Source: a virus (Duplodnaviria > Heunggongvirae > Uroviricota > Caudoviricetes). From it: DNA of 9,855 nucleotides. The notes under the pieces are model-generated. The model worked only from the letters and a program-made list of their open reading frames with translations, did not search any database and was not told the DNA's origin. The position numbers were made by a program, and so were the translations under genes. The DNA is taken from IMG/VR virus record IMGVR_UViG_2617270976_000011, positions 1 to 9,855 of that record. One strand, written 5' to 3'. Shown piece after piece: positions 1 through 9,855 of the stretch (within the stretch, counting starts at the first letter, position 1; each line of letters begins with the position of its first letter).

Positions 1-996
1 TTATGGACGCATTATGGACATTCCTGACACCGGGTTAAGAGTCACAGCATCTTGTAAGAAATCCGGTGCAAAGTGTGCGTAGGTCATAGTTTGCTGAATG
101 TTAGAATGACCCAGGATGCGCTGCAATGTGATTATGTTACCTCCATTAATTATAAAATGTGTGGCAAATGTATGCCTCAAAACATGTACTGCTTGTCCGT
201 CAGGTAAATCGGGTTTTACTTCCCTGAGAGCGTTACGCACTTTGTAGTAACTGGCATTAAAAAGCCTGCCTGAATTTTTGGTCTTGATCCTTTTAATCAG
301 GTCCTGCGAAACGGGAATTGTCCTGCGCTTTCCGTTTTTAGTTTTCATAAACGTAACCATCTGGTTAATGATGTGTTCAGCTTTCAAATTAGACACTTCA
401 CTCCAGCGTCCACCAGTAGAAAGGCAGACTAGAGTTGCATTTAACTCATCACCATCAAGCATGGATAACAGCCGCGTAATCTCTTCACTGGACAAAAAAG
501 CCATTTCTGTAACAGCTTCACGTAACCGCTTAACCTCACGGAACGGGTTGTGAGAGTGGTATTCACCGGCGTCAATTAACTTGGTGAACATCCCGCTCAT
601 TATTGCCAGATGCCGATTTACGCTGGCTGGTTTTAGACCATCGTTCATCATTACAACTCGATAATCAGTTATCGTTTTCTTTGTTAACTGGTCAGCTCTG
701 GACACTCCCATTTCTGCAAATTTGGCGATTATTGTCGTCAAACGCCCCCGTTCAATATTTCCACGCTCATGTGATTTTCCGTGATATATCCACCATCTGC
801 CTAACAACTCTGTAAGAGTTCGGCGGTCGGCTGGCTTCTCCAGCCACTCTTTGTTGTGGTAGTTAACCAGCACATGACGTTCGAATGCTTGAGCTTCACC
901 TTTAGTTTTAAATTTCCGCCTGATACGTTTTCCATCTGCACCCTGCGGTCTGACGTCCACTTCATAACGACCATCATCGAGCTTTTTAATAGACAT
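1..996 (-). CDS. int: Phage tyrosine integrase, P2 family, complete (331 aa)
   Basis: Full-length minus-strand ORF. The C-terminal catalytic region has HxxR (HVLRHTFATHF) and a conserved Tyr (MTYAHFAPDF). The N-terminus MSIKKLDDGRYEV matches my recollection of P2 Int (337 aa). A GGAGGG Shine-Dalgarno lies just upstream of the ATG at 994-996. Confidence 0.9.
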   Translation of the reverse strand: MSIKKLDDGRYEVDVRPQGADGKRIRRKFKTKGEAQAFERHVLVNYHNKEWLEKPADRRTLTELLGRWWIYHGKSHERGNIERGRLTTIIAKFAEMGVSRADQLTKKTITDYRVVMMNDGLKPASVNRHLAIMSGMFTKLIDAGEYHSHNPFREVKRLREAVTEMAFLSSEEITRLLSMLDGDELNATLVCLSTGGRWSEVSNLKAEHIINQMVTFMKTKNGKRRTIPVSQDLIKRIKTKNSGRLFNASYYKVRNALREVKPDLPDGQAVHVLRHTFATHFIINGGNIITLQRILGHSNIQQTMTYAHFAPDFLQDAVTLNPVSGMSIMRP

Positions 997-1089
997 AAAG
1001 CCCTCCGATGACGCTGTTTACTTCTACTACTTGAAAATTAATGCAATTTTCTTTCGTACATTTACTGCACACATATGCTGAATAAATCG

Positions 1090-1401
1090 TCAGCCAGTCT
1101 TTTGGTCTGAGTGGTGCAAGGTTGTTGAGTCTTGCCCAATGTGCGCGAGCGCCGGGGCTATTTGTCCGCCAGCGGGATCAGTTTCATCAAACATGAACCA
1201 GTCACGGTACTTGCGAAATCTTTCTGGCTTGAAAAATTTCATACCTGCGTCAAAAGACATCTTTACTTTTCCCTGCTCATATCCAGCATAGGTGTTGTAG
1301 TTAATTCCAGTTAATTCAGCAACTTGCTTCCTTGTCATTCTTTCTGATTCCCGAATAAGTGCGAGTTTCTCTGCTTGAGATGTGATTTGTGTATTTGACA
1401 T
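1090..1401 (-). CDS. C: P2 C-type immunity repressor (about 103 aa)
   Basis: The track ORF (1090-1449) contains an internal Met at 1399-1401 that begins MSNTQITSQ, and its C-terminus GQIAPALAHIGQDSTTLHHSDQKTG matches my recollection of P2 C (99 aa). It lies immediately upstream of int on the same strand, as in P2. The 16 extra N-terminal codons in the track ORF are probably not translated. Confidence 0.8.
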   Translation of the reverse strand: MSNTQITSQAEKLALIRESERMTRKQVAELTGINYNTYAGYEQGKVKMSFDAGMKFFKPERFRKYRDWFMFDETDPAGGQIAPALAHIGQDSTTLHHSDQKTG

Positions 1402-1505
1402 GAATTGTCGTATCTCGTAATTTATGTTGTATGCGACACACCAGAACAACGCAGAGCGGCTTCAAATAGCTCTGGTTGAATGGCACCAAAGTTGAGGATA
1501 TCAAA
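1402..1505. promoter_or_regulatory. Immunity/early switch intergenic region between divergent C and cox starts (expected Pc/Pe promoters and repressor operators)
   Basis: 104-bp AT-rich spacer between the divergent start codons. It contains imperfect direct repeats TGTCGTAT (1406-1413) and TGTTGTAT (1425-1432). P2 C repressor is known to bind direct repeats; the specific sites here are not verified. Confidence 0.35.
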
Positions 1506-2690
1506 ATGAGTATTGGATCAGAAATGAATAACGATGTTGGAGAAAAAGTATCTGATCTCACAAAAAGTAAAAAATGTGACATCAAACTTGCAGCCGCACC
1601 GTCGGATTTGCTCTCGAAAGAGGGTTTTGCTCTTTACATCGGTAAGACGCCTCGCGCTGTTGCTGAAATGGCGAAAGCAGGCAAGTTACCAGCCTTTTAT
1701 ATGACGGACCCATTAAAGCCGGGCGGTCATGCTGAGTTATGGATTAACCGGGGCGGTGCTGCGGGGTATATCGCGAAATACATTTCAAAAAACATCGACG
1801 GCTATGCACTGGATGGTCAGCTCGATAACGACACCGGCAGGCCGCTGAAAGACACTGCCGCGGCTGTTACCGCATGGGCGTCAACGTGGCGCATTCCGCA
1901 ATTTAAAACGGTTGGCCTGCCGACAATGGGGGCTTACCGTGAACTACGCAAATTACCTCGCGGCGTCAGCATTGCTGATGAGTTTGACGAACGCGTCGAG
2001 GCTGCACGCGCTGCCGCAGACAGTGGCGATTTTGCGCTGTATATCAGCGCGCAGGGTGGGGCAAATGTCCCGCGCGATTGTCAGACTGTCAGGGTCGCCC
2101 GTAGTCCGTCGGATGAAGTTAACGAGTACGAGGAAGAAGTCGAGAGAGTGGTCGGCATTTACGCGCCGCATCTCGGCGCGCGTCATATTCATATCACCAG
2201 AACGACGGACTGGCGCATTGTTCCGAAAGTGCCGGTCGTTGAGCCTTTGACTTTAAAAAGCGGCATCGCCGCGCCTCGGAGTCCTGTCAATAACTGTGGA
2301 AAGCTTGCCGACGGTGGCGATCCAGTTATGACACCTACGCCGTCTGAGCATGCCGCAGCGGTGCTAAATCTTGTCGATGATGGGGTTATTGCATGGGATG
2401 ACCCCGAAGTTGTGACGGTGCTCAGGAGTGCATTAAAACACGGCGCGCCGCAGCAAAATCGACAGCAAAGAAGCGATGAGCCATTAAAATCGAATCAGAT
2501 AGCACCATCAGGGCGAATGACAAAAGCCGAGAGGGCTCAGATTCCGCGCATCCGCTTCGAACTGGCGCAGCAGGGTATCACGCCGCAGCGGTGGGAACTT
2601 CAGGCGCTGGCTCGTGGCGGAATAGTGGTTTATGGCGAAAAAAGATTTGTATACCCGATAGCGGACGAGTGGGTGAAGCATGAAGGGTGA
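1506..2690 (+). CDS. In-frame deletion fusion: Cox-like HTH N-terminus (about 80 aa) joined to the C-terminal ~310 aa of rolling-circle replication initiator gpA; probably a non-functional remnant
   Basis: The N-terminal segment FALYIGKTPRAVAEMAKAGKLPAFYMTDPLKPGGHAELWINR resembles P2 Cox. It runs directly into GYIAKYISKNIDGY, the paired-tyrosine (Y-x-x-x-Y) motif of phiX174/P2 A-type initiators. Gene B and the N-terminal ~450 aa of A are absent. A GAGGA Shine-Dalgarno precedes the ATG at 1506; the track ORF starts earlier at 1476. Confidence 0.7.
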   Translation: MSIGSEMNNDVGEKVSDLTKSKKCDIKLAAAPSDLLSKEGFALYIGKTPRAVAEMAKAGKLPAFYMTDPLKPGGHAELWINRGGAAGYIAKYISKNIDGYALDGQLDNDTGRPLKDTAAAVTAWASTWRIPQFKTVGLPTMGAYRELRKLPRGVSIADEFDERVEAARAAADSGDFALYISAQGGANVPRDCQTVRVARSPSDEVNEYEEEVERVVGIYAPHLGARHIHITRTTDWRIVPKVPVVEPLTLKSGIAAPRSPVNNCGKLADGGDPVMTPTPSEHAAAVLNLVDDGVIAWDDPEVVTVLRSALKHGAPQQNRQQRSDEPLKSNQIAPSGRMTKAERAQIPRIRFELAQQGITPQRWELQALARGGIVVYGEKRFVYPIADEWVKHEG

Positions 2691-2753
2691 TTTATATCCA
2701 TCTAAATCATGATGTTATGATGGCCGTGTGAGTTCTTTTCTGATTGGGGCTGC

Positions 2754-2928
2754 GTTCGACGGCTTGAAATGTTGTAAATGCTCATAATCTGGTTTAAAGT
2801 GTTTTTATGCCAACGACTAGGAGCATCTCCAGTCATAAATGTTGGCCTCTACAGGCCTTTATATAGTGTTGCTCTTGTACTGCCTTCTCTTTCGAGAGAA
2901 GGTATGTACAAGAAGTAAAGCCTGCGAA
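2754..2928 (+). ncRNA. Candidate retron msr-msd non-coding RNA (boundaries approximate)
   Basis: Non-coding leader directly upstream of, and co-oriented with, the RT gene. Candidate a1 TTCGACGGCTT (2754-2764) is complementary to candidate a2 AAGCCTGCGAA (2918-2928) at 9 of 11 positions, with a G immediately 3' of a1. A strong hairpin at 2876-2910 sits just 5' of a2, where an msd stem would be. Not confirmed by folding or covariance. Confidence 0.3.
2876..2910 (+). repeat. Inverted-repeat hairpin: 8-bp perfect core CCTTCTCT/AGAGAAGG with a TTCG (UUCG) tetraloop, extendable to about 15 pairs with one G-T wobble and a 1-nt bulge
   Basis: Read directly: 2883-2890 CCTTCTCT, loop 2891-2894 TTCG, 2895-2902 AGAGAAGG; outer arms TGTAC (2876-2880) and GTACA (2906-2910). 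Confidence 0.8.
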
Positions 2929-3016
2929 GGGAGGGTGTCTGGGGTGAGGAAAGACTGAGAGTTAAAGCATTCATCTTAGAATCCATTCAACTCAAAAAAC
3001 AAAAGCTCAGCCAACG

Positions 3017-4006
3017 ATGAAACCCCTTAGTCTCGAAAAAGCCTTCAATATTGCATTCTTCGAAAAAGATTCCTTTCAAAACTTTCTTTCGTTTGAACCA
3101 TTTCAACAAACTAAATTTATAACCTTTGATGAAAGGTTAATTGCTGAGCCCACTTCTAAACTAAAAGAGTATCACAAATTCATAAATGAATTTGTTCTTT
3201 CATACTTGAAAGTAAATAAGGATGTTGTGTTTTCGTATAGAAAAGGAAGCAGCACTTATGATGCAGTAAAACTTCACGCCTGTAGTAAGATATTCTTCAA
3301 TACTGATATTAAAAGCTTTTTCCCATCGATAACTCGTGAATATGCACGATCAGTTTTAGTTGATAACTTATCGAACGTTCCCATTTCCGATTTAAATATA
3401 CACTTGGATAAAATTTTAGATTATATTATTATCGATAATTCGTTGCCTGTAGGGTTCCCGACATCACCAGCTTTCAGCAATGCATGTTTATATGACTTTG
3501 ATGTTGAGATGCAGCAATATTGTATTAACCATGAATATATATTCACACGCTATTCAGATGATATTATTATTTCCTCTGAAAATGATGAGGGCTTTGAGAA
3601 TATTCATTCTGTAGTAAGTGACCTGCTGGGTGAGTTTGGGAAGGGACATTTCAAACTAAACTCAGCAAAAACTAAATTGATTAAAAAAGGCAGTAAGATT
3701 AAGCTGCTGGGGATGGTTATTTTACCGTCTCAGATAGTCTCTGTTGATATTAAAATAAAAAGAAAGCTTGAGCATTTGATTCATTTTTATGTAACGGATA
3801 AAGATAAATTTATAGATTCTATAATAAAAGATCCTAAGGTTAAAACTAGCGGATTGAATGATAGTGAGATCTTGGAAAAGGGCGTTAATACAGTTTCTGG
3901 TCTTTTGAATCATATAAACACAATTGATAAGAGTTATCTCGATAAGCTAAAGAGAAAATACGGAAATACGATTGTCGATATGCTTTTTTACAAGAATGTA
4001 AATTAA
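3017..4006 (+). CDS. Reverse transcriptase, retron-type (329 aa)
   Basis: RT motifs are in canonical order: SSTYDAVKLHA (NAxxH-like box, residues 78-88), DIKSFFPSI (motif A, 97-105), LPVGFPTSPAFSN (QG-P-SP box, 143-155), YSDD catalytic box (179-182, nt 3551-3562), LLGMVI (230-235). Small size, no maturase or endonuclease domain, a non-coding structured leader upstream and an effector gene downstream all fit a retron. AT-rich coding sequence. Confidence 0.85.
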   Translation: MKPLSLEKAFNIAFFEKDSFQNFLSFEPFQQTKFITFDERLIAEPTSKLKEYHKFINEFVLSYLKVNKDVVFSYRKGSSTYDAVKLHACSKIFFNTDIKSFFPSITREYARSVLVDNLSNVPISDLNIHLDKILDYIIIDNSLPVGFPTSPAFSNACLYDFDVEMQQYCINHEYIFTRYSDDIIISSENDEGFENIHSVVSDLLGEFGKGHFKLNSAKTKLIKKGSKIKLLGMVILPSQIVSVDIKIKRKLEHLIHFYVTDKDKFIDSIIKDPKVKTSGLNDSEILEKGVNTVSGLLNHINTIDKSYLDKLKRKYGNTIVDMLFYKNVN

Positions 4007-4007
4007 A

Positions 4008-5360
4008 ATGAAAATAAATATTGAGATCTCGAAAATCCAGCATGTTGAACATATGTCATTTGCTATTGATCTTTCTGAAAATAAACTGACTTGCATTGTA
4101 GGAAAGAACGGTGCTGGAAAGACAACGCTAATCAAAGCAATTAAAAATTTACAATCAGCAGATACATTCATAAAGACATCTTCTAGATATATATTCAATC
4201 CTGACAGTAGTATAGTATATAATATTAATGATCAAGATATAGTATATGTCTATGATGAGAATTTGAAGGTAATAGATACTAAGCAAATAATTCCAGCAGA
4301 TATAAAATCCAATCTTTATGTCGAGTTGCCCATTCCTCATGGAATGAGGTTCAATAACTTCCCAACACTTAGTAAAATTGATACTGAACTTAGAAAAAGT
4401 ATTGCGTTTGAAAGCTATAGCGTTCCCGAGGATTTGATAAATATACTCAATGAGGTATATCAGTCTTCTTCTTACAATAATCTTAAAGCATTTTCTGTAA
4501 AAAATGAAATTTTCTATTTCAGATTGAATGAGAACGGAACATACATAAGGGAGGATTACTTTAGCTCGGGTGAGTATTTTATTTTGAATTTATTTAGAAT
4601 GATTGAGCTCAAAAGAAAATTCATTGTCATAGATGAGATAGATATATCACTAGACTCTTCGGCGCAAGTCCATCTTATAGCAGTGCTAAGGAAATATTGT
4701 CAGAGACACTCGGTGAATATTGTATTCACAACACATTCACTTGCTTTAATGCAAACGCTGAATGATGATGAATTGTACTATATGTGCGAAGGTGATGCTG
4801 GAACTACAATTACAAATCGATCATATAATTATATAAAAAGTACGCTTTTTGGATTTAAAGGATGGGATAAGTACATTCTTACTGAAGATGAAGTTCTGCA
4901 AAATTTCTTAGAATATATAATTAATGCTCCTGGGAATGATTACTTCTACGAATATAAAATAATATATGTTGGTGGAGGAACTAATGTCATTGATTTAATG
5001 CGTCGTAATGAGAGAGAGAGCTTTCTCACGACTCAACAGAATGTGATCTCAGTGTTAGACGGAGATCAATTAGGTCAAAGGCATGCTCGAGGTGAAAATA
5101 TTTTATGCATACCTTTCCAAAGCGTTGAGAAGGATTTCTATCAAGCATACGGCCAAGATGAATCGATCCCGAGAGTTACAACTAGAGGTAACGATAAACT
5201 TGATAAGCAAGTTTATCGAGGGGTAGTGAAAACCTATGACAACGGCTGGGATGAAACTAGGATTTTTGAATACCTTGAGAGGTTAAAGCCTGATGAATGT
5301 GAGGCTTTCAGGCAAAAAATTAGAGCATTTCTCCAAAGAAATATTTCGGCAGAGGGTTGA
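4008..5360 (+). CDS. OLD-family ABC-type ATPase with C-terminal TOPRIM-like nuclease domain (450 aa); probable retron effector
   Basis: Walker A GKNGAGKTT (residues 32-40, nt 4101-4127), ABC-signature-like FSSGE (185-189), Walker B FIVIDEID (205-212), H-loop TTHS (241-244). The C-terminal half has TOPRIM-like acidic residues: ILTEDEV (Glu ~293) and VLDGDQ (DxD, 351-353). The ATG lies 1 nt after the RT stop (TAA 4004-4006, ATG 4008-4010). Confidence 0.8.
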   Translation: MKINIEISKIQHVEHMSFAIDLSENKLTCIVGKNGAGKTTLIKAIKNLQSADTFIKTSSRYIFNPDSSIVYNINDQDIVYVYDENLKVIDTKQIIPADIKSNLYVELPIPHGMRFNNFPTLSKIDTELRKSIAFESYSVPEDLINILNEVYQSSSYNNLKAFSVKNEIFYFRLNENGTYIREDYFSSGEYFILNLFRMIELKRKFIVIDEIDISLDSSAQVHLIAVLRKYCQRHSVNIVFTTHSLALMQTLNDDELYYMCEGDAGTTITNRSYNYIKSTLFGFKGWDKYILTEDEVLQNFLEYIINAPGNDYFYEYKIIYVGGGTNVIDLMRRNERESFLTTQQNVISVLDGDQLGQRHARGENILCIPFQSVEKDFYQAYGQDESIPRVTTRGNDKLDKQVYRGVVKTYDNGWDETRIFEYLERLKPDECEAFRQKIRAFLQRNISAEG

Positions 5361-5502
5361 ATATAAGCTTCGGGATCTCATGCCTCTCTATCTGCATGAA
5401 ATTGCATTTGATAATTCCTATTTTTCTCGTGAACTGTGTCACGTTAGGCGCAGCTCAGGGCTCATAATGCATCTGCATTAAAACCGCCCCACGAAGCGGG
5501 CG

Positions 5503-5521
5503 GGCGAGGCGGGGAAAGCAC
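5503..5521. other. Candidate P2-type cos cohesive-end sequence GGCGAGGCGGGGAAAGCAC
   Basis: The 19-mer matches my recollection of the P2 19-nt cohesive end. It sits in a GC-rich non-coding stretch between the cargo cassette and head/tail remnants, which is where cos lies in a P2 prophage (between old and Q). Identification is from memory, not a search. Confidence 0.5.
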
Positions 5522-5663
5522 TGCGCGCTGGCGGTGGTGCTGATTTTATTTTTTCAGCGTCTGAGCGCGTCGTGAAGGCGTTTACTTGGCCTGCTGGGGC
5601 GTTGGTGTGTCTGCGGGATTTTTTGTGCGGTGATGAGCGTGTGAGGGCGTGATGACAGGGTAT

Positions 5664-5685
5664 AAAAAAGCCGCCCGCAGGCGGC
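5664..5685 (-). terminator. Intrinsic terminator-like hairpin for leftward transcription (GCCGCC-TGCG-GGCGGC followed by TTTTTT on the minus strand)
   Basis: Plus strand shows AAAAAA (5664-5669), GCCGCC (5670-5675), CGCA loop, GGCGGC (5680-5685). This lies immediately downstream of the minus-strand ORF stop at 5691-5693. Confidence 0.55.
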
Positions 5686-5690
5686 GATGT

Positions 5691-6209
5691 TCAGCCGTTG
5701 TCAGTGTCCAGTGAGTAGTTTTTAAAGCGGATGACCTCCTGACCGAGCCAGCCGTTTATCTCGCGGATCCTGTCCTGTAGCGGGATAAGCTCATTGCGGA
5801 CAAAGACCTTTGCCACTTTCTCAATATCACCCAGCGACCCGACGTTCTCCGGCTTGCCTCCCATCAACTGAAAGGGGATGCGGTGCGCGTCCAGCAGGTC
5901 AGCGGCGCTGGCTTTTTTGATATTAAAAAAATCGTCCTTCGTTGCGACTTCACTGAGCGGGATAATTTTAATGCCGTCGGCTTTCCCCTGCGGGGCATAG
6001 AGAAACAGATTTTTAAAGTTGTTGCGGCCTTTCGACTTGACCATGTTTTCGCGAATACGGGATGCGTGACCGTTCAGCTCGCGCAGTGATTTTTGTGTTT
6101 CCCGGATATCCCCCGACAGCGACCTGCTCGCTGTACGGATGGATTTAAACGGGCGGGATGCCTGGTCAACAGCCCTGAGCAATACCTGTAATTTTACATT
6201 GTTACTCAT
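5691..6209 (-). CDS. Chimeric ORF (172 aa): N-terminal ~60 aa consistent with the start of tape-measure gene T, fused to a ~110-aa portal-like (gpQ-like) C-terminal segment
   Basis: Its ATG (6207-6209) overlaps the stop of the upstream E' frame (TAA 6203-6205) as ATGAGTAA, the position expected for the start of T after E/E'. The C-terminal part (AHRIPFQLMGG ... NELIPLQDRIREINGWL) resembles a conserved C-terminal portal motif. Its own frame is closed by a TGA 18 codons upstream of the ATG. Confidence 0.45.
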   Translation of the reverse strand: MSNNVKLQVLLRAVDQASRPFKSIRTASRSLSGDIRETQKSLRELNGHASRIRENMVKSKGRNNFKNLFLYAPQGKADGIKIIPLSEVATKDDFFNIKKASAADLLDAHRIPFQLMGGKPENVGSLGDIEKVAKVFVRNELIPLQDRIREINGWLGQEVIRFKNYSLDTDNG

Positions 6210-6491
6210 TCGTGTTTCCGCTTCGCCGGAGCGCCTTTTCGCGCCATGTGATGAGTTCGGTCAGGCTCATGGGATACAGTTCTGATGGCGGCCAGTGAAA
6301 TATCACAGCCACATCCGCCATCAGGTCATCGACCGAGAGATTTTTCGGAAACGTCACTGCACCGAGTTCGGCGACAAAAAACCGACCACCTTACCGGCCA
6401 GCGCCACAAGGTCAGGCAGTTCCAGCGCGGCGACTTCCTGCTCGGTCAGAACAGGTAAAGCTGCTGATAGCGACCGGAGGCCGTGGATTTT
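6203..6491 (-). pseudogene. 5'-truncated remnant of tail assembly chaperone genes E and E+E' (programmed -1 frameshift pair)
   Basis: Minus-strand frame 0 reads ...LTEQEVAALELPDLVALAGKVVGFLSPNSVQ-stop, with no start codon and an in-frame stop at 6492-6494. The -1 frame continues from the slippery site as FFVAELGAVTFPKNLSVDDLMADVAVIFHWPPSELYPMSLTELITWREKALRRSGNTNE-stop. Seven codons after the slip in frame 0 and a 58-codon extension fit the 91-aa and 142-aa sizes I recall for P2 E and E+E'. Confidence 0.5.
6375..6381 (-). other. -1 programmed ribosomal frameshift slippery heptamer T_TTT_TTG
   Basis: Plus strand is CAAAAAA at 6375-6381, i.e. TTTTTTG on the minus strand, positioned in frame as X_XXY_YYZ seven codons before the frame-0 stop. 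I recall the same heptamer as the P2 E/E' frameshift site. Confidence 0.5.
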
Positions 6492-6526
6492 TCACCGCGA
6501 CGGTTAAACACCTTCGCCGGTCGACC

Positions 6527-9256
6527 ATGTGCGAACGGGTGGTCACTGTAGTCGGTGAAGATTTCCGGCTTTCCCAGCAGGATTTCAGCCGCTTTGTGCT
6601 GGATTTTCTGGTGTTCGGTAATGCGTTTCTGGAAAAGCGTTACAGCACCACCGGTAAGGTCATCAGACTGGAAACCTCACCGGCAAAATATACCCGCCGT
6701 GGTGTGGAGGAGGATGTTTACTGGTGGGTGCCGTCCTTCAACGAGCCGACAGCCTTCGCGCCCGGCTCCGTGTTTCACCTGCTGGAGCCGGATATTAATC
6801 AGGAGCTGTACGGCCTGCCGGAATATCTCAGCGCCCTTAACTCTGCCTGGCTGAATGAGTCAGCCACGCTGTTCCGCCGCAAGTATTACGAAAACGGCGC
6901 ACATGCCGGATACATCATGTACGTCACTGATGCCGTGCAGGATCGCAACGATATCGAAATGCTTGAGGGATTCCGCAAGACCAGTGCACAGCTTGCCGTG
7001 ACTGGTCATGCACTTGAAAAGGCTCGGCAGGAAGCCGAAGCCCTTGCCACACAGTTTAAAAACACCGAACGTCCGACCCGTGCTCAGGCGAAAGTGCTGG
7101 AATCCGCAAAGCGTGCGGCGGAGGACTTACAGGCGAAATATAACCGCCTGACGGATTCCGTTAAACGCCAGCAGCGGGAACTGGCCGCTGTGGGAATTAA
7201 TACCCGCAATCTTGCACATGATGAGCAGGGACTGAAAAACCGTATCAGTGAAACCACCGCACAGCTTAACCGTCAGCGTGATGCGCTGGCGCGTGTCAGT
7301 GCGCAACAGGCAAAACTTAACGCAGTCAAACAGCGTTATCAGGCCGGAAAGGAACTGGCCGGAAATATGGCCTCAGTAGGCGCTGCCGGTGTGGGGATTG
7401 CGGCGGCGGGAACGATGGCCGGAGTTAAATTGCTGATGCCCGGTTATGAGTTTGCGCAGAAAAACTCAGAATTGCAGGCCGTGCTCGGAGTGGCAAAAGA
7501 CTCCGCCGAAATGACCGCACTCCGCAAGCAGGCGCGCCAGCTCGGCGACAATACCGCAGCCTCGGCAGATGATGCAGCCGGTGCACAGATAATCATTGCG
7601 AAAGCGGGTGGAGATGCTGCGGCTATTCAGGCAGCAACGCCGGTCACACTGAATATGGCACTGGCAAACCAGCGGTCGATGGAAGAAAACGCGCAATTGT
7701 TGCTGGGGACTAAGGCATCCTTTCAACTGTCAAATGATGATGTCAGCCATGTGGGCGACGTGTTGTCGGCAACGATGAATAAGTCGGCGGCTGATTTTCA
7801 GGGACTCAGTGATGCACTGACTTACCTCGGCCCGGTTGCGAGGACGGCAGGTGTAAGTATTGAGCAGGCAGCGGCCATGACCGGTGTGCTGCATGACAAT
7901 AACATCAGGGGGTCAATGGCGGGTACGGGTAGCAGTGCCGTTGTCACCCGATTACAGGCACCGACTGGAAAAGCATGGGATGCACTCAAAGAGCTTGGCG
8001 TTAAAACCTCGGACAAAAAGGGAAATATGCGTCCGTTGTTCACCATTCTGAAAGAGATTCAGGCCAGCTTTGATAAGCATAAGCTGGGAACGTCTCAGAA
8101 GGGGGAATACCTTAAAACCATTTTTGGTGAGGAAGCCCTGAAATCAGCGAACGTTTTACTGGCAGCGGCAGCAAGCGGAAAACTGGATACGCTGACCGCC
8201 ACGCTGAAAGCCTCGGACGGTAAAACGGAAGAGCTGGTTAAAATCATGCAGGATAACCTCGGCGGTGACTTTAAGGAGTTTCAGTCCGCTTATGAGGCGG
8301 TGGGGACTGACCTGTTTGACCAGCAGGAAGGCGCACTGCGTAAGCTCACTCAGACGGCCACAAAGTATGTGTTAAAACTCGACGGCTGGATCCAGAAAAA
8401 CAAATCACTGGCGTCAACCATCGGCCTCATTGTCGGTGGCGCGCTGGCGCTTATTGGCATCATCGGTGCCATTGGTCTTGTCGCCTGGCCGGTTATCACC
8501 GGCATCAATGCCATTATCGCGGCAGCAGGCGCAATGGGGGCAATCTTCACGACGGTTAGCAGTGCTGTTATGACGGCCATCGGGGCGATTAGCTGGCCGG
8601 TTGTGGCCGTGGTGGCCGCCATTGTCGCCGGGGCGTTGCTTATCCGTAAATACTGGGAGCCTGTCAGCGCATTCTTTGGCGGTGTGGTGGAAGGGCTGAA
8701 AGCGGCATTTGCGCCGGTGGGGGAACTGTTCACGCCACTGAAGCCGGTGTTTGACTGGCTGGGTGAAAAGTTACAGGCCGTGTGGCAGTGGTTTAAAAAC
8801 CTGATTGCCCCGGTCAAAGCCACCCAGGACACCCTGAACCGTTGCCGTGACACGGGCGTTATGTTCGGGCAGGCACTGGCTGACGCGCTGATGCTGCCGC
8901 TTAATGCGTTCAACAAACTGCGCAGCGGTATTGACTGGGTACTGGAAAAACTCGGTGTTATCAACAAAGAGTCAGACACACTTGACCAGACCGCCGCAAG
9001 GACTCATGCCGCCACGTATGGCACCGGTGGTTATATTCCGGCGACCAGCTCTTATGCTGGCTATCAGGCTTATCAGCCGGTCACGGCACCGGCTGGCCGC
9101 TCTTATGTGGACCAGAGTAAAAACGAATATCACATCAACCTGACGGGCGGTACTGCGCCGGGGACACAGCTCGACCGCCAGTTACAGGATGCGCTCGAAA
9201 AATACGAGCGGGATAAACGTGCGCGCGCCCGTGCCAGCATGATGCATGACGGTTAA
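6527..9256 (+). CDS. Chimeric long ORF (909 aa): N-terminal ~150-aa portal-like segment fused in frame to ~745 aa of phage tail tape-measure protein (gpT-like)
   Basis: From about residue 160 onward the protein has a long coiled-coil region, a conserved tape-measure core (ASFQLSNDDVSHVGDVLSATMNKSAADFQGLSDALTYLGPVARTAGVSIEQAAAMTGVLHDNN) and Gly/Ala/Ile-rich hydrophobic segments. The first ~150 residues (e.g. FRRKYYENGAHAGYIMYVTDAVQDRNDIEMLEG) are unlike tape measure and look portal-like. No Shine-Dalgarno precedes the ATG, and the frame is open back to 6299 without a start. Confidence 0.75.
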   Translation: MCERVVTVVGEDFRLSQQDFSRFVLDFLVFGNAFLEKRYSTTGKVIRLETSPAKYTRRGVEEDVYWWVPSFNEPTAFAPGSVFHLLEPDINQELYGLPEYLSALNSAWLNESATLFRRKYYENGAHAGYIMYVTDAVQDRNDIEMLEGFRKTSAQLAVTGHALEKARQEAEALATQFKNTERPTRAQAKVLESAKRAAEDLQAKYNRLTDSVKRQQRELAAVGINTRNLAHDEQGLKNRISETTAQLNRQRDALARVSAQQAKLNAVKQRYQAGKELAGNMASVGAAGVGIAAAGTMAGVKLLMPGYEFAQKNSELQAVLGVAKDSAEMTALRKQARQLGDNTAASADDAAGAQIIIAKAGGDAAAIQAATPVTLNMALANQRSMEENAQLLLGTKASFQLSNDDVSHVGDVLSATMNKSAADFQGLSDALTYLGPVARTAGVSIEQAAAMTGVLHDNNIRGSMAGTGSSAVVTRLQAPTGKAWDALKELGVKTSDKKGNMRPLFTILKEIQASFDKHKLGTSQKGEYLKTIFGEEALKSANVLLAAAASGKLDTLTATLKASDGKTEELVKIMQDNLGGDFKEFQSAYEAVGTDLFDQQEGALRKLTQTATKYVLKLDGWIQKNKSLASTIGLIVGGALALIGIIGAIGLVAWPVITGINAIIAAAGAMGAIFTTVSSAVMTAIGAISWPVVAVVAAIVAGALLIRKYWEPVSAFFGGVVEGLKAAFAPVGELFTPLKPVFDWLGEKLQAVWQWFKNLIAPVKATQDTLNRCRDTGVMFGQALADALMLPLNAFNKLRSGIDWVLEKLGVINKESDTLDQTAARTHAATYGTGGYIPATSSYAGYQAYQPVTAPAGRSYVDQSKNEYHINLTGGTAPGTQLDRQLQDALEKYERDKRARARASMMHDG

Positions 9257-9270
9257 GGAGGTGACGAAAA

Positions 9271-9555
9271 ATGATGCTCGCGTTAGGTATGTTTGTTTTT
9301 ATGCGCCAGACGCTGCCACACCAGACCATGCAGCGTGAATCAGATTATCGCTGGCCGTCAAATTCCCGTACCGGTCGTGCAGATATTTACACGGAAACAC
9401 CGGTCAGAGTGTCAGGCTTTAAGCGCGTCATAGACGAGCAGGACTGGACAATCACTAAGGTGACACATTTTCTGAATAATAGCGGCTTCACGACGTCCTT
9501 AGAGCTTGAGGTCAGGCTTTCTGATGTGGAGTACGAAACAGAAGATTATGAGTGA
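9271..9555 (+). CDS. Truncated tail protein remnant (94 aa): gpU-like N-terminus, possibly fused to a gpD-like C-terminus
   Basis: A strong AAGGAGGTGA Shine-Dalgarno (9255-9264) precedes the ATG, 15 nt after the T stop, which is where U sits in the P2 FETUD operon. At 94 aa it is far shorter than U (about 159 aa) or D (about 387 aa), so an internal deletion is likely. The U/D fusion point is inferred, not demonstrated. Confidence 0.45.
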   Translation: MMLALGMFVFMRQTLPHQTMQRESDYRWPSNSRTGRADIYTETPVRVSGFKRVIDEQDWTITKVTHFLNNSGFTTSLELEVRLSDVEYETEDYE

Positions 9556-9636
9556 TGTATTTTGTTTATCTGTTTGTTTTATAAGGATAAATTAACTAAA
9601 ATGGCAACATCAACAAAACCGGAAGAGGTGCTCGCG

Positions 9637-9855
9637 ATGTTTCATTGTCCTTTATGCCAGCATGCCGCACATGCGCGTACAAGCCGCTATATCACTGACA
9701 CGACAAAAGAGCGTTATCACCAGTGTCAGAACGTGAATTGCAGCGCCACGTTCATAACTTATGAGTCGGTACAGCGATACATCGTGAAGCCGGGAGAAGT
9801 CCACGCCGTAAGGCCGCACCCGTTGCCGTCAGGGCAGCAAATTATGTGGATGTAA
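9637..9855 (+). CDS. ogr: Ogr late-gene transcriptional activator, C4 zinc-finger (72 aa)
   Basis: Sequence MFHCPLCQHAAHARTSRYITDTTKERYHQCQNVNCSATFITYESVQRYIVKPGEVHAVRPHPLPSGQQIMWM matches my recollection of P2 Ogr, including the CxxC...CxxxxC zinc-finger cysteines. The track ORF (from 9562) carries 25 extra N-terminal codons that are probably not translated; 9601 is an alternative start. Confidence 0.85.
   Translation: MFHCPLCQHAAHARTSRYITDTTKERYHQCQNVNCSATFITYESVQRYIVKPGEVHAVRPHPLPSGQQIMWM

Follow-up and report, generated by a model that had tools for sequence, protein, structure and literature searches.

Retrons of type I-B1 are defined by a clade-1 reverse transcriptase (RT) together with one ABC ATPase/TOPRIM protein, in which TOPRIM motif IV reads EDxxL and motif V reads DxD; in type I-B2, represented by Retron-Eco8, motif IV is EGxxE (Mestre 2020, PMC7736814). 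The table of that study lists no described retron for type I-B1. A review of OLD nucleases names the I-B1 effectors class 3B OLD (PMC10568477). Here we compare these systems with a locus in a stretch of viral DNA of 9,855 nucleotides (nt; IMG/VR record IMGVR_UViG_2617270976_000011, positions 1 to 9,855), called the window below. The gene at 4008-5360 (+) of the window encodes a protein with an ABC-type ATPase and a predicted TOPRIM domain, and we hold with high confidence that the cassette around it (2.7-5.4 kb), consisting of a non-coding RNA (ncRNA), an RT and this effector, is a complete type I-B1 retron.

The nuclease of Retron-Eco8 is autoinhibited and is freed when a phage SSB (single-stranded DNA-binding protein) binds the multicopy single-stranded DNA (msDNA) of the retron, which leads to abortive infection; the substrate of this nuclease is DNA (PMC13402713, PMC12887533). 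P2 Old was described in a 2026 preprint as a tRNase that is switched on by hairpins of single-stranded DNA (ssDNA), and the preprint gives transfer RNA (tRNA) as the substrate in P2 Old, PARIS and retron-Septu. The gene order in phage P2 (AF063097) is A, orf91, tin (-), old (-), cosR. In P2-like prophages, the region between gpA and the portal gene gpQ serves as a defence hotspot, in which 1,650 arrangements of genes occur and retrons are part of the cargo (Rousset 2022, PMC9122126); work on this hotspot is also attributed to Odegrip et al. 2006, as cited in PMC9122126.

Results

The effector and its reverse transcriptase

The open reading frame (ORF) of the effector starts with an ATG at 4008, ends with a stop codon at 5358-5360 and encodes 450 amino acids (aa). 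Residues ~1-267 form the ABC-type ATPase and residues ~268-450 the TOPRIM and helical C-terminal region. The protein matched the PADLOC model ATPase-Toprim_I-B over its full length (residues 1-443 of the 443-position model, E 1.6e-179). In Pfam, the ATPase part alone was recognised (AAA_21, 3.4e-16; AAA_15, 7.7e-12). Among scored candidates, 1173 proteins were homologous at E <= 1e-3, and conservation was assessed in an alignment of 43 diverse homologues with 47-94% identity to the window protein.

An earlier note on this DNA had described a single-chain ATPase/TOPRIM protein on the basis of a few motifs. Every one of these motifs lies at the residue given there, and the catalytic residues are invariant. 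In Walker A, GKNGAGKTT (residues 32-40; 4101-4127, +), G32, N34, G37, K38, T39 and T40 do not vary, and in Walker B with the D-loop, FIVIDEID (residues 205-212; 4620-4643, +), the same holds for D209, E210 and D212. As the signature motif S187-G188-E189 and H243 of the H-loop are also invariant, Walker A, signature motif, Walker B and H-loop of an ABC-type ATPase are all present. TOPRIM motif IV, E293-D-E-V-L297 (EDxxL, within ILTEDEVL; 4884-4898, +), contains the invariant E293, and both aspartates of motif V, D351-G-D353 (DxD; 5058-5066, +), are invariant, as is E374. D294, L297 and K375 are kept in at least 90% of the homologues. Because E293-D-E-V-L297 and DGD match the motifs published by Mestre 2020, the effector carries the I-B1 signature.

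The stop codon of the RT gene (3017-4006, +; 329 aa, type I-B1, clade 1) lies 1 nt before the ATG of the effector gene. The RT matched Pfam RVT_1 (8.2e-19) and PADLOC RT_I-B (6.5e-110); its match to NCBIfam retron_St85_RT (3.2e-52) stayed under the cut-off of that model. The closest solved RTs are those of type I-A retrons, likewise of clade 1 (E 1e-19 to 3e-22), and the Eco8 RT reached only 4e-8. In a survey of 80 loci from one-genome-per-species collections, an RT homologue ended just upstream of the effector gene in all 79 loci with upstream sequence. The coupling of the effector to an RT, as noted earlier from the window sequence, is thus general, and it extends to a covarying ncRNA.

A small ORF of 62 aa (5293-5481, +) overlaps the 3' end of the effector gene and reaches almost to cos; it is probably not a gene.

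The msr-msd RNA

The 326-bp spacer 5' of the RT gene holds a block conserved beyond the proteins. A covariance model built from seven loci matched the window at 2791-2921 (+) with 148.8 bits, a region made up of msr stem-loops and, after them, a long msd hairpin. The model gave one match per locus, beside the RT gene, in 79 of 84 sources. In the resulting alignment 90.2% of the cells were paired, compared with 32-43% in controls with slid partners; 37 of 42 pairs had changed on both sides, and the covariation score was 0.555 versus 0.05-0.09 in the controls. These pairing counts lean towards structure because the alignment was fitted to the covariance model. The RNA at 2791-2921 is the msr-msd RNA of the retron.

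The msr core (2807-2855; ATGCCAACGACTAGGAGCATCTCCAGTCATAAATGTTGGCC...) is strongly conserved, and its DNA identity amounts to 77-100% between loci whose RTs are only 35-45% identical. This conservation spans loci from Pseudomonas, Burkholderiales and Methylococcales. Across 78 sequences, helix 4 of the model hardly varies. The conservation of the msr core and of helix 4 suggests a sequence-specific contact with a protein. No convincing conserved pair of a1/a2 inverted repeats flanking the ncRNA was found by eye or by repeat search, so that the ends of the RNA are not defined, and the branching G was not located. An Rfam scan of the window returned no retron family and two matches at chance level only.

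In 10 of 79 loci, mostly from Betaproteobacteria, the match of the ncRNA model lies on one strand and the RT and effector genes on the other (L085, L047, L070, L084, L057, L080, L052, L058, L044 and L066). In L085, for example, the match at 4833-4962 (-) scored 58.9 bits on the minus strand versus 6.1 bits on the plus strand. Judging from these positions, transcription of the ncRNA and of the RT would be divergent in one sub-clade of the I-B1 retrons.

Predicted fold of the C-terminal domain

The earlier note had called the C-terminal domain TOPRIM provisionally. This assignment gained support from an AlphaFold2 model of the full-length effector (mean predicted local distance difference test score, pLDDT, 85.8). 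The modelled C-terminal region consists of strand 288-292, E293, a helix, strand 316-320, a helix, strand 346-350, the DGD motif, strand 365-367 and helix 373-383. In the model, this order corresponds to the canonical TOPRIM layout with a glutamate after β1 and DxD after β3. A Foldseek search of the PDB with the full-length model returned TsOLD, the OLD nuclease of Thermus scotoductus (6p74, E 1.6e-12), in first place, with Gabija GajA next; PtuA chains of type I-A retrons and SMC heads ranked after GajA. In the predicted structures, the effector accordingly has neither a C-terminal domain of another fold nor a place among SMC/RecN-like ATPases. Between the ATPase lobes, where a dimerisation insert would sit, the model has short helices only (region 113-151, ~40 residues).

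The isolated C-terminal model found no PDB structure at E <= 0.001; its best match had an E of 0.055, and AriB was third. In a Pfam scan of 29 isolated C-terminal fragments at E <= 10, PF20469 was not detected, and stray matches occurred to Toprim_2 in two fragments and to DUF4435 in one. Together with the loss of the second glutamate of motif IV, the missing Pfam TOPRIM match and the insignificant Foldseek result for the isolated domain are what would be expected of a degenerate, non-catalytic TOPRIM-like module with a binding or regulatory role, with toxicity due to the ATPase or to a partner from the host. We consider this very improbable, as all 43 homologues, the most distant with 47% identity, share E293, D351, D353 and E374, at least 90% of them also have D294 and K375, and in the predicted fold all of these residues fall on canonical catalytic positions. 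Two observations support the assignment as a TOPRIM domain: the predicted fold, and catalytic residues that do not vary and lie where such a domain would have them.

Relation to P2 Old and the OLD superfamily

P2 Old (AF063097, 586 aa) matched AAA_15, AAA_21 and OLD-like_TOPRIM (PF20469, 1.2e-17) in Pfam. No pairwise similarity was detected between the effector and P2 Old. When the profile of the I-B1 family was aligned with the single P2 Old sequence by hhalign, a probability of 50.7% was obtained, restricted to the Walker B region. Alignment with the profile of the Old family raised the probability to 88.7% (E 2.6e-6, columns 203-334). This alignment runs continuously from Walker B into β1-α1-β2 of the TOPRIM domain and ends before DxD; it sets ILTEDEVL on LLVEGKTE of P2 Old, with E293 on E398, and the region around the effector Walker B corresponds to P2 Old residues 291-338. 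With the C-terminal profile alone nothing was found in the single P2 Old sequence, and against the profile of the Old family it gave an insignificant match (E 0.098) in an identical register. The comparison of hidden Markov models that the earlier note had suggested therefore gives a tentative link between the two families over the combined region, and no significant one over the C-terminal domain by itself.

E398, G399, T401 and E402 (EGxxE) are invariant in the Old family. The distance from the motif IV glutamate to DxD is similar, with 58 aa in the effector versus 55 aa in P2 Old. The stretch from Walker A to Walker B comprises ~171 residues in the effector versus ~262 in P2 Old and is thus ~90 residues shorter.

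Searches with other collections placed the ATPase among several families. The best non-self PADLOC matches of the effector were HEC-04, AriA, AbiLi, mad3 and PtuA, all of which ranked above GajA. P2 Old matched the I-B2 model (5e-20), and the I-B1 model was not among its best 25 matches listed. Against the PDB, the family profile gave weak matches of similar strength to PtuA, TsOLD and AriA, limited to the ATPase (Ec83 PtuA, 4.6e-6; TsOLD, 3.1e-5), and a phmmer search with the effector found ABC-transporter ATPases only and no OLD, GajA or Eco8 effector. As far as sequence comparison goes, the ATPase appears to be roughly equidistant from AriA and PtuA on one side and GajA and OLD on the other.

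Most of these search results also fit an origin of the OLD-like layout by convergence or domain shuffling, in which a PtuA- or AriA-like ATPase of the type I-A and Septu/PARIS lineage gained a TOPRIM domain separately and the resemblance to P2 Old would be architectural only. Beyond the higher PADLOC scores of HEC-04, AriA, AbiLi, mad3 and PtuA compared with GajA, the preference of the PDB profile search for Ec83 PtuA over TsOLD and the PADLOC result for P2 Old, such an origin would agree with an RT nearest to type I-A RTs, with the absence of a PF20469 match, with EDxxL in place of EGxxE, and with the single sequence cluster in which Mestre 2020 groups the ATPases of type I-A (cluster 22_1) with the effectors of type I-B1 (22_2). 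However, in the published ATPase and TOPRIM trees (Mestre 2020) I-B1 lies closer to OLD class 1/2 than it does to PtuA, and the hhalign alignment with the Old family is unbroken from Walker B into β1-α1-β2 of the TOPRIM domain. We therefore rate a separate gain of the TOPRIM domain, with a merely architectural likeness to Old, as unlikely.

The effector is probably a remote, compact and outlying branch of the OLD superfamily. Its earlier placement in one OLD family with P2 Old is correct as regards architecture and agrees with the published assignment to the superfamily; at closer range it did not stand, given the lack of pairwise similarity and of PF20469 and a profile probability of 88.7%.

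The gpA-cos slot

The cassette is flanked on the left by the 3' end of gpA, which has its stop codon at 2690, and on the right by cos (5503-5521, +), whose 19-nt cohesive-end sequence GGCGAGGCGGGGAAAGCAC is identical to P2 cosR (L004, 6576-6594) and forms the right boundary of the slot. Homology with P2 covers the end of A and restarts at ~5474, ~30 nt before cos. Beyond cos lies a 3' fragment of the portal gene Q (5691-6055, -); Pfam Phage_portal was found on the ORF 5691-6209, and the segment is colinear with L001, an intact prophage carrying the same retron, up to position 9456 of the latter. Related genomes carry the annotation phage portal protein for the gene beyond cos. Within the window, the cassette forms a trough in G+C content (28-37% versus 50-57% in the flanks). 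The retron is low-GC cargo of the variable gpA-cos slot in a P2-like prophage. A terminator-like hairpin (5484-5503, -) lies directly beside cos.

The same cassette was found between intact gpA and the portal gene Q in 10 of 5426 complete Escherichia coli (E. coli) genomes, and the flanks alone, without the cassette, are common to ~2150 of them. P2/186-like prophages of Kluyvera, Kosakonia, Dickeya and Paraburkholderia likewise carry it between an intact gpA and the portal gene. The description of the slot as a defence hotspot with exchanged cargo, already given in the earlier note, agrees with PMC9122126. Table S5A of that study lists WP_024248661, the accession annotated on the window effector in E. 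coli, as 'RVT_1 + AAA_21'. A search of the literature for the protein accessions found nothing in main texts and only this supplementary table.

In P2 itself old does lie between A and cos, as the earlier note had stated, and the window cassette occupies the matching slot. The further statement that Old normally occupies this locus has to be withdrawn, since P2 old is present in only 17 of the 5426 complete E. coli genomes versus 10 for the I-B1 retron. Old is the occupant in the reference phage and not the usual occupant of the slot.

Two ABC-ATPase/TOPRIM proteins in one slot might point to a true local reuse of the scaffold, the retron effector having descended from the resident old gene or replaced it by homology. 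P2 old and tin, however, are oriented opposite to A, with a promoter of their own near cos, whereas the retron lies on the strand of A, and this opposite orientation of old argues against local descent. In addition, similarity between the effector and Old is undetectable in pairwise comparison, and Old itself is rare in the slot. The distribution of the retron points in the same direction: only 4 of the 80 species-level loci have gpA and gpQ on both sides, one more has a gpA remnant, and at least 74 lack flanking gpA and gpQ, some lying beside cas3/cse1 as in Photorhabdus. Strand, similarity, locus distribution and the rarity of Old all contradict a local derivation of the effector from old, which we rejected as hardly credible, and with it the proposed local reuse of a related scaffold.

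Rearrangements of the prophage

The left boundary of the slot is an in-frame cox::A' fusion ORF (1476-2690, +) that matches Pfam Phage_Cox and the final 20 positions of Phage_GPA. The 3' part of this ORF corresponds to the end of replication gene A, and the junction lies near 1744-1747. From there the window (1744-6055) is colinear with L001 5145-9456. Compared with L001, ~3.2 kb are deleted at the junction, from orf78/B through the first half of A, and the window prophage cannot replicate.

The late region (5691-9555) is scrambled. The ORF 5691-6209 (-) joins an apparent N-terminus of the tape-measure protein to the C-terminus of the portal protein, and the ORF 6527-9256 (+) joins an inverted portal segment (6567-6964, corresponding to L001 9852-9455 reversed) to the tape measure. 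In the ORF 9271-9555, residues 6-38 match the N-terminal part of GpU (the first 33 of 120 Pfam positions); the remainder has no Pfam match and may be derived from D. The pattern of the late region fits a Q-T inversion after which the head genes, the lysis genes and most tail genes were lost, with the retron kept intact. Neither junction segment (1500-2000 and 5950-7050) was contiguous in any of the 5426 complete E. coli genomes, which points to a genome outside that set or to an assembly artefact. E24377A carries a different portal/gpE/tape-measure remnant (H36).

Discussion

Proposed mechanism

Gene order, invariance of the motifs, the predicted fold, the obligatory linkage of RT, effector and ncRNA and the hotspot position are established here. 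By analogy with the systems described, the RT would copy the msd part of the RNA into msDNA, and a complex of RT and msDNA would bind the effector and keep its nuclease switched off. A product of an infecting phage, in Retron-Eco8 the phage SSB, might then perturb the msDNA or the complex, upon which the TOPRIM site would cleave nucleic acid; the target could be DNA, as for Eco8, or tRNA, as given for P2 Old, PARIS and retron-Septu. Growth of the infected cell would cease, and the lysogen and its prophage would be protected from competing phages. For the window retron we judge the chances that this outline is right to be about even.

Taken as a whole, the locus is probably best explained as I-B1 retron cargo with a compact ABC-ATPase/TOPRIM effector from a remote branch of the OLD superfamily that acts as proposed. 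Several observations weigh against this explanation. A Pfam scan of the effector reported no TOPRIM family, and PF20469 was present in none of 120 I-B1 effector homologues listed; among the Old homologues listed it was present in 119 of 120, the exception being a 335-aa fragment. The second motif IV glutamate of the Old family is a leucine in the I-B1 effectors. In the literature searched, no experimental or structural characterisation of any I-B1 retron was found. Finally, because the RT clade and the size of the OLD protein differ, the 4:4:4 assembly and the SSB trigger of Eco8 may not transfer to the window retron.

A more far-reaching joint reading would make the I-B1 effectors minimal OLD proteins, which lack the large dimerisation insert, carry EDxxL and receive oligomerisation and gating wholly from the RT-msDNA scaffold. 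As the preprint has P2 Old activated by ssDNA hairpins, the msDNA hairpin could be a resident ligand on a surface that senses such hairpins. OLD nucleases in general would then sense ssDNA hairpins, the P2 slot would switch between Old as a stand-alone sensor and the retron as a pre-loaded one, and the loci with ncRNA on the opposite strand would add a new layout of retron expression. We regard this combination of claims as distinctly improbable and prefer the I-B1 retron with a compact effector of a remote OLD branch.

Comparison with known systems

The overall picture is already published in the definition of type I-B1 (Mestre 2020), in class 3B OLD and in the P2 gpA-gpQ hotspot (Rousset 2022). 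The observation adds little that is new, each element being in the literature down to the protein accession. With type I-B1 retrons and class 3B OLD the cassette shares the clade-1 RT, the single ATPase-TOPRIM protein downstream, the ncRNA upstream and a full-length PADLOC match; no difference was detected, and the window cassette is a member. With the P2-like gpA-gpQ hotspot (PMC9122126) it shares the identical slot bordering cos and the presence of retrons among the cargo; in the parts of that study available to us, the effector system is catalogued only and neither discussed nor tested.

Retron-Eco8 (type I-B2, class 3A OLD) likewise combines an RT, msDNA and a single-chain ATPase-TOPRIM effector with E...DxD. 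In contrast to the window RT, the Eco8 RT belongs to a different clade (E 4e-8 to the window RT), and the OLD protein of Eco8 is far larger; it has a dimerisation domain of four helices, and its TOPRIM domain is expanded, with catalytic residues up to K693. Eco8 has EGxxE, of which the second glutamate is required for defence, whereas the window effector of 450 aa has EDxxL. The Eco8 effector chain was absent among the sequence and structure matches listed for the window effector. As the RT is nearest to type I-A and the effector lacks the large inserts of Eco8, details of the assembly may differ. Type I-A retrons (Ec78/Eco7, Ec83) provide the closest solved RTs, and their PtuA chains are among the top Foldseek matches; their nuclease, however, is a separate PtuB HNH protein, whereas the window effector has a fused TOPRIM domain.

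P2 Old, a class 1 OLD protein, occupies the gpA-cos slot in the P2 reference genome and has, like the effector, an ABC ATPase followed by a TOPRIM domain with E...DxD. It differs in size (586 versus 450 aa), in its match to OLD-like_TOPRIM and in working alone, whereas the I-B1 effector always comes with an RT and an ncRNA. A compact OLD-like effector of 450 aa in an E. coli P2-like prophage would be a convenient model beside Retron-Eco8 and P2 Old, and comparison with these two could apportion the regulation of OLD nucleases between protein and msDNA.

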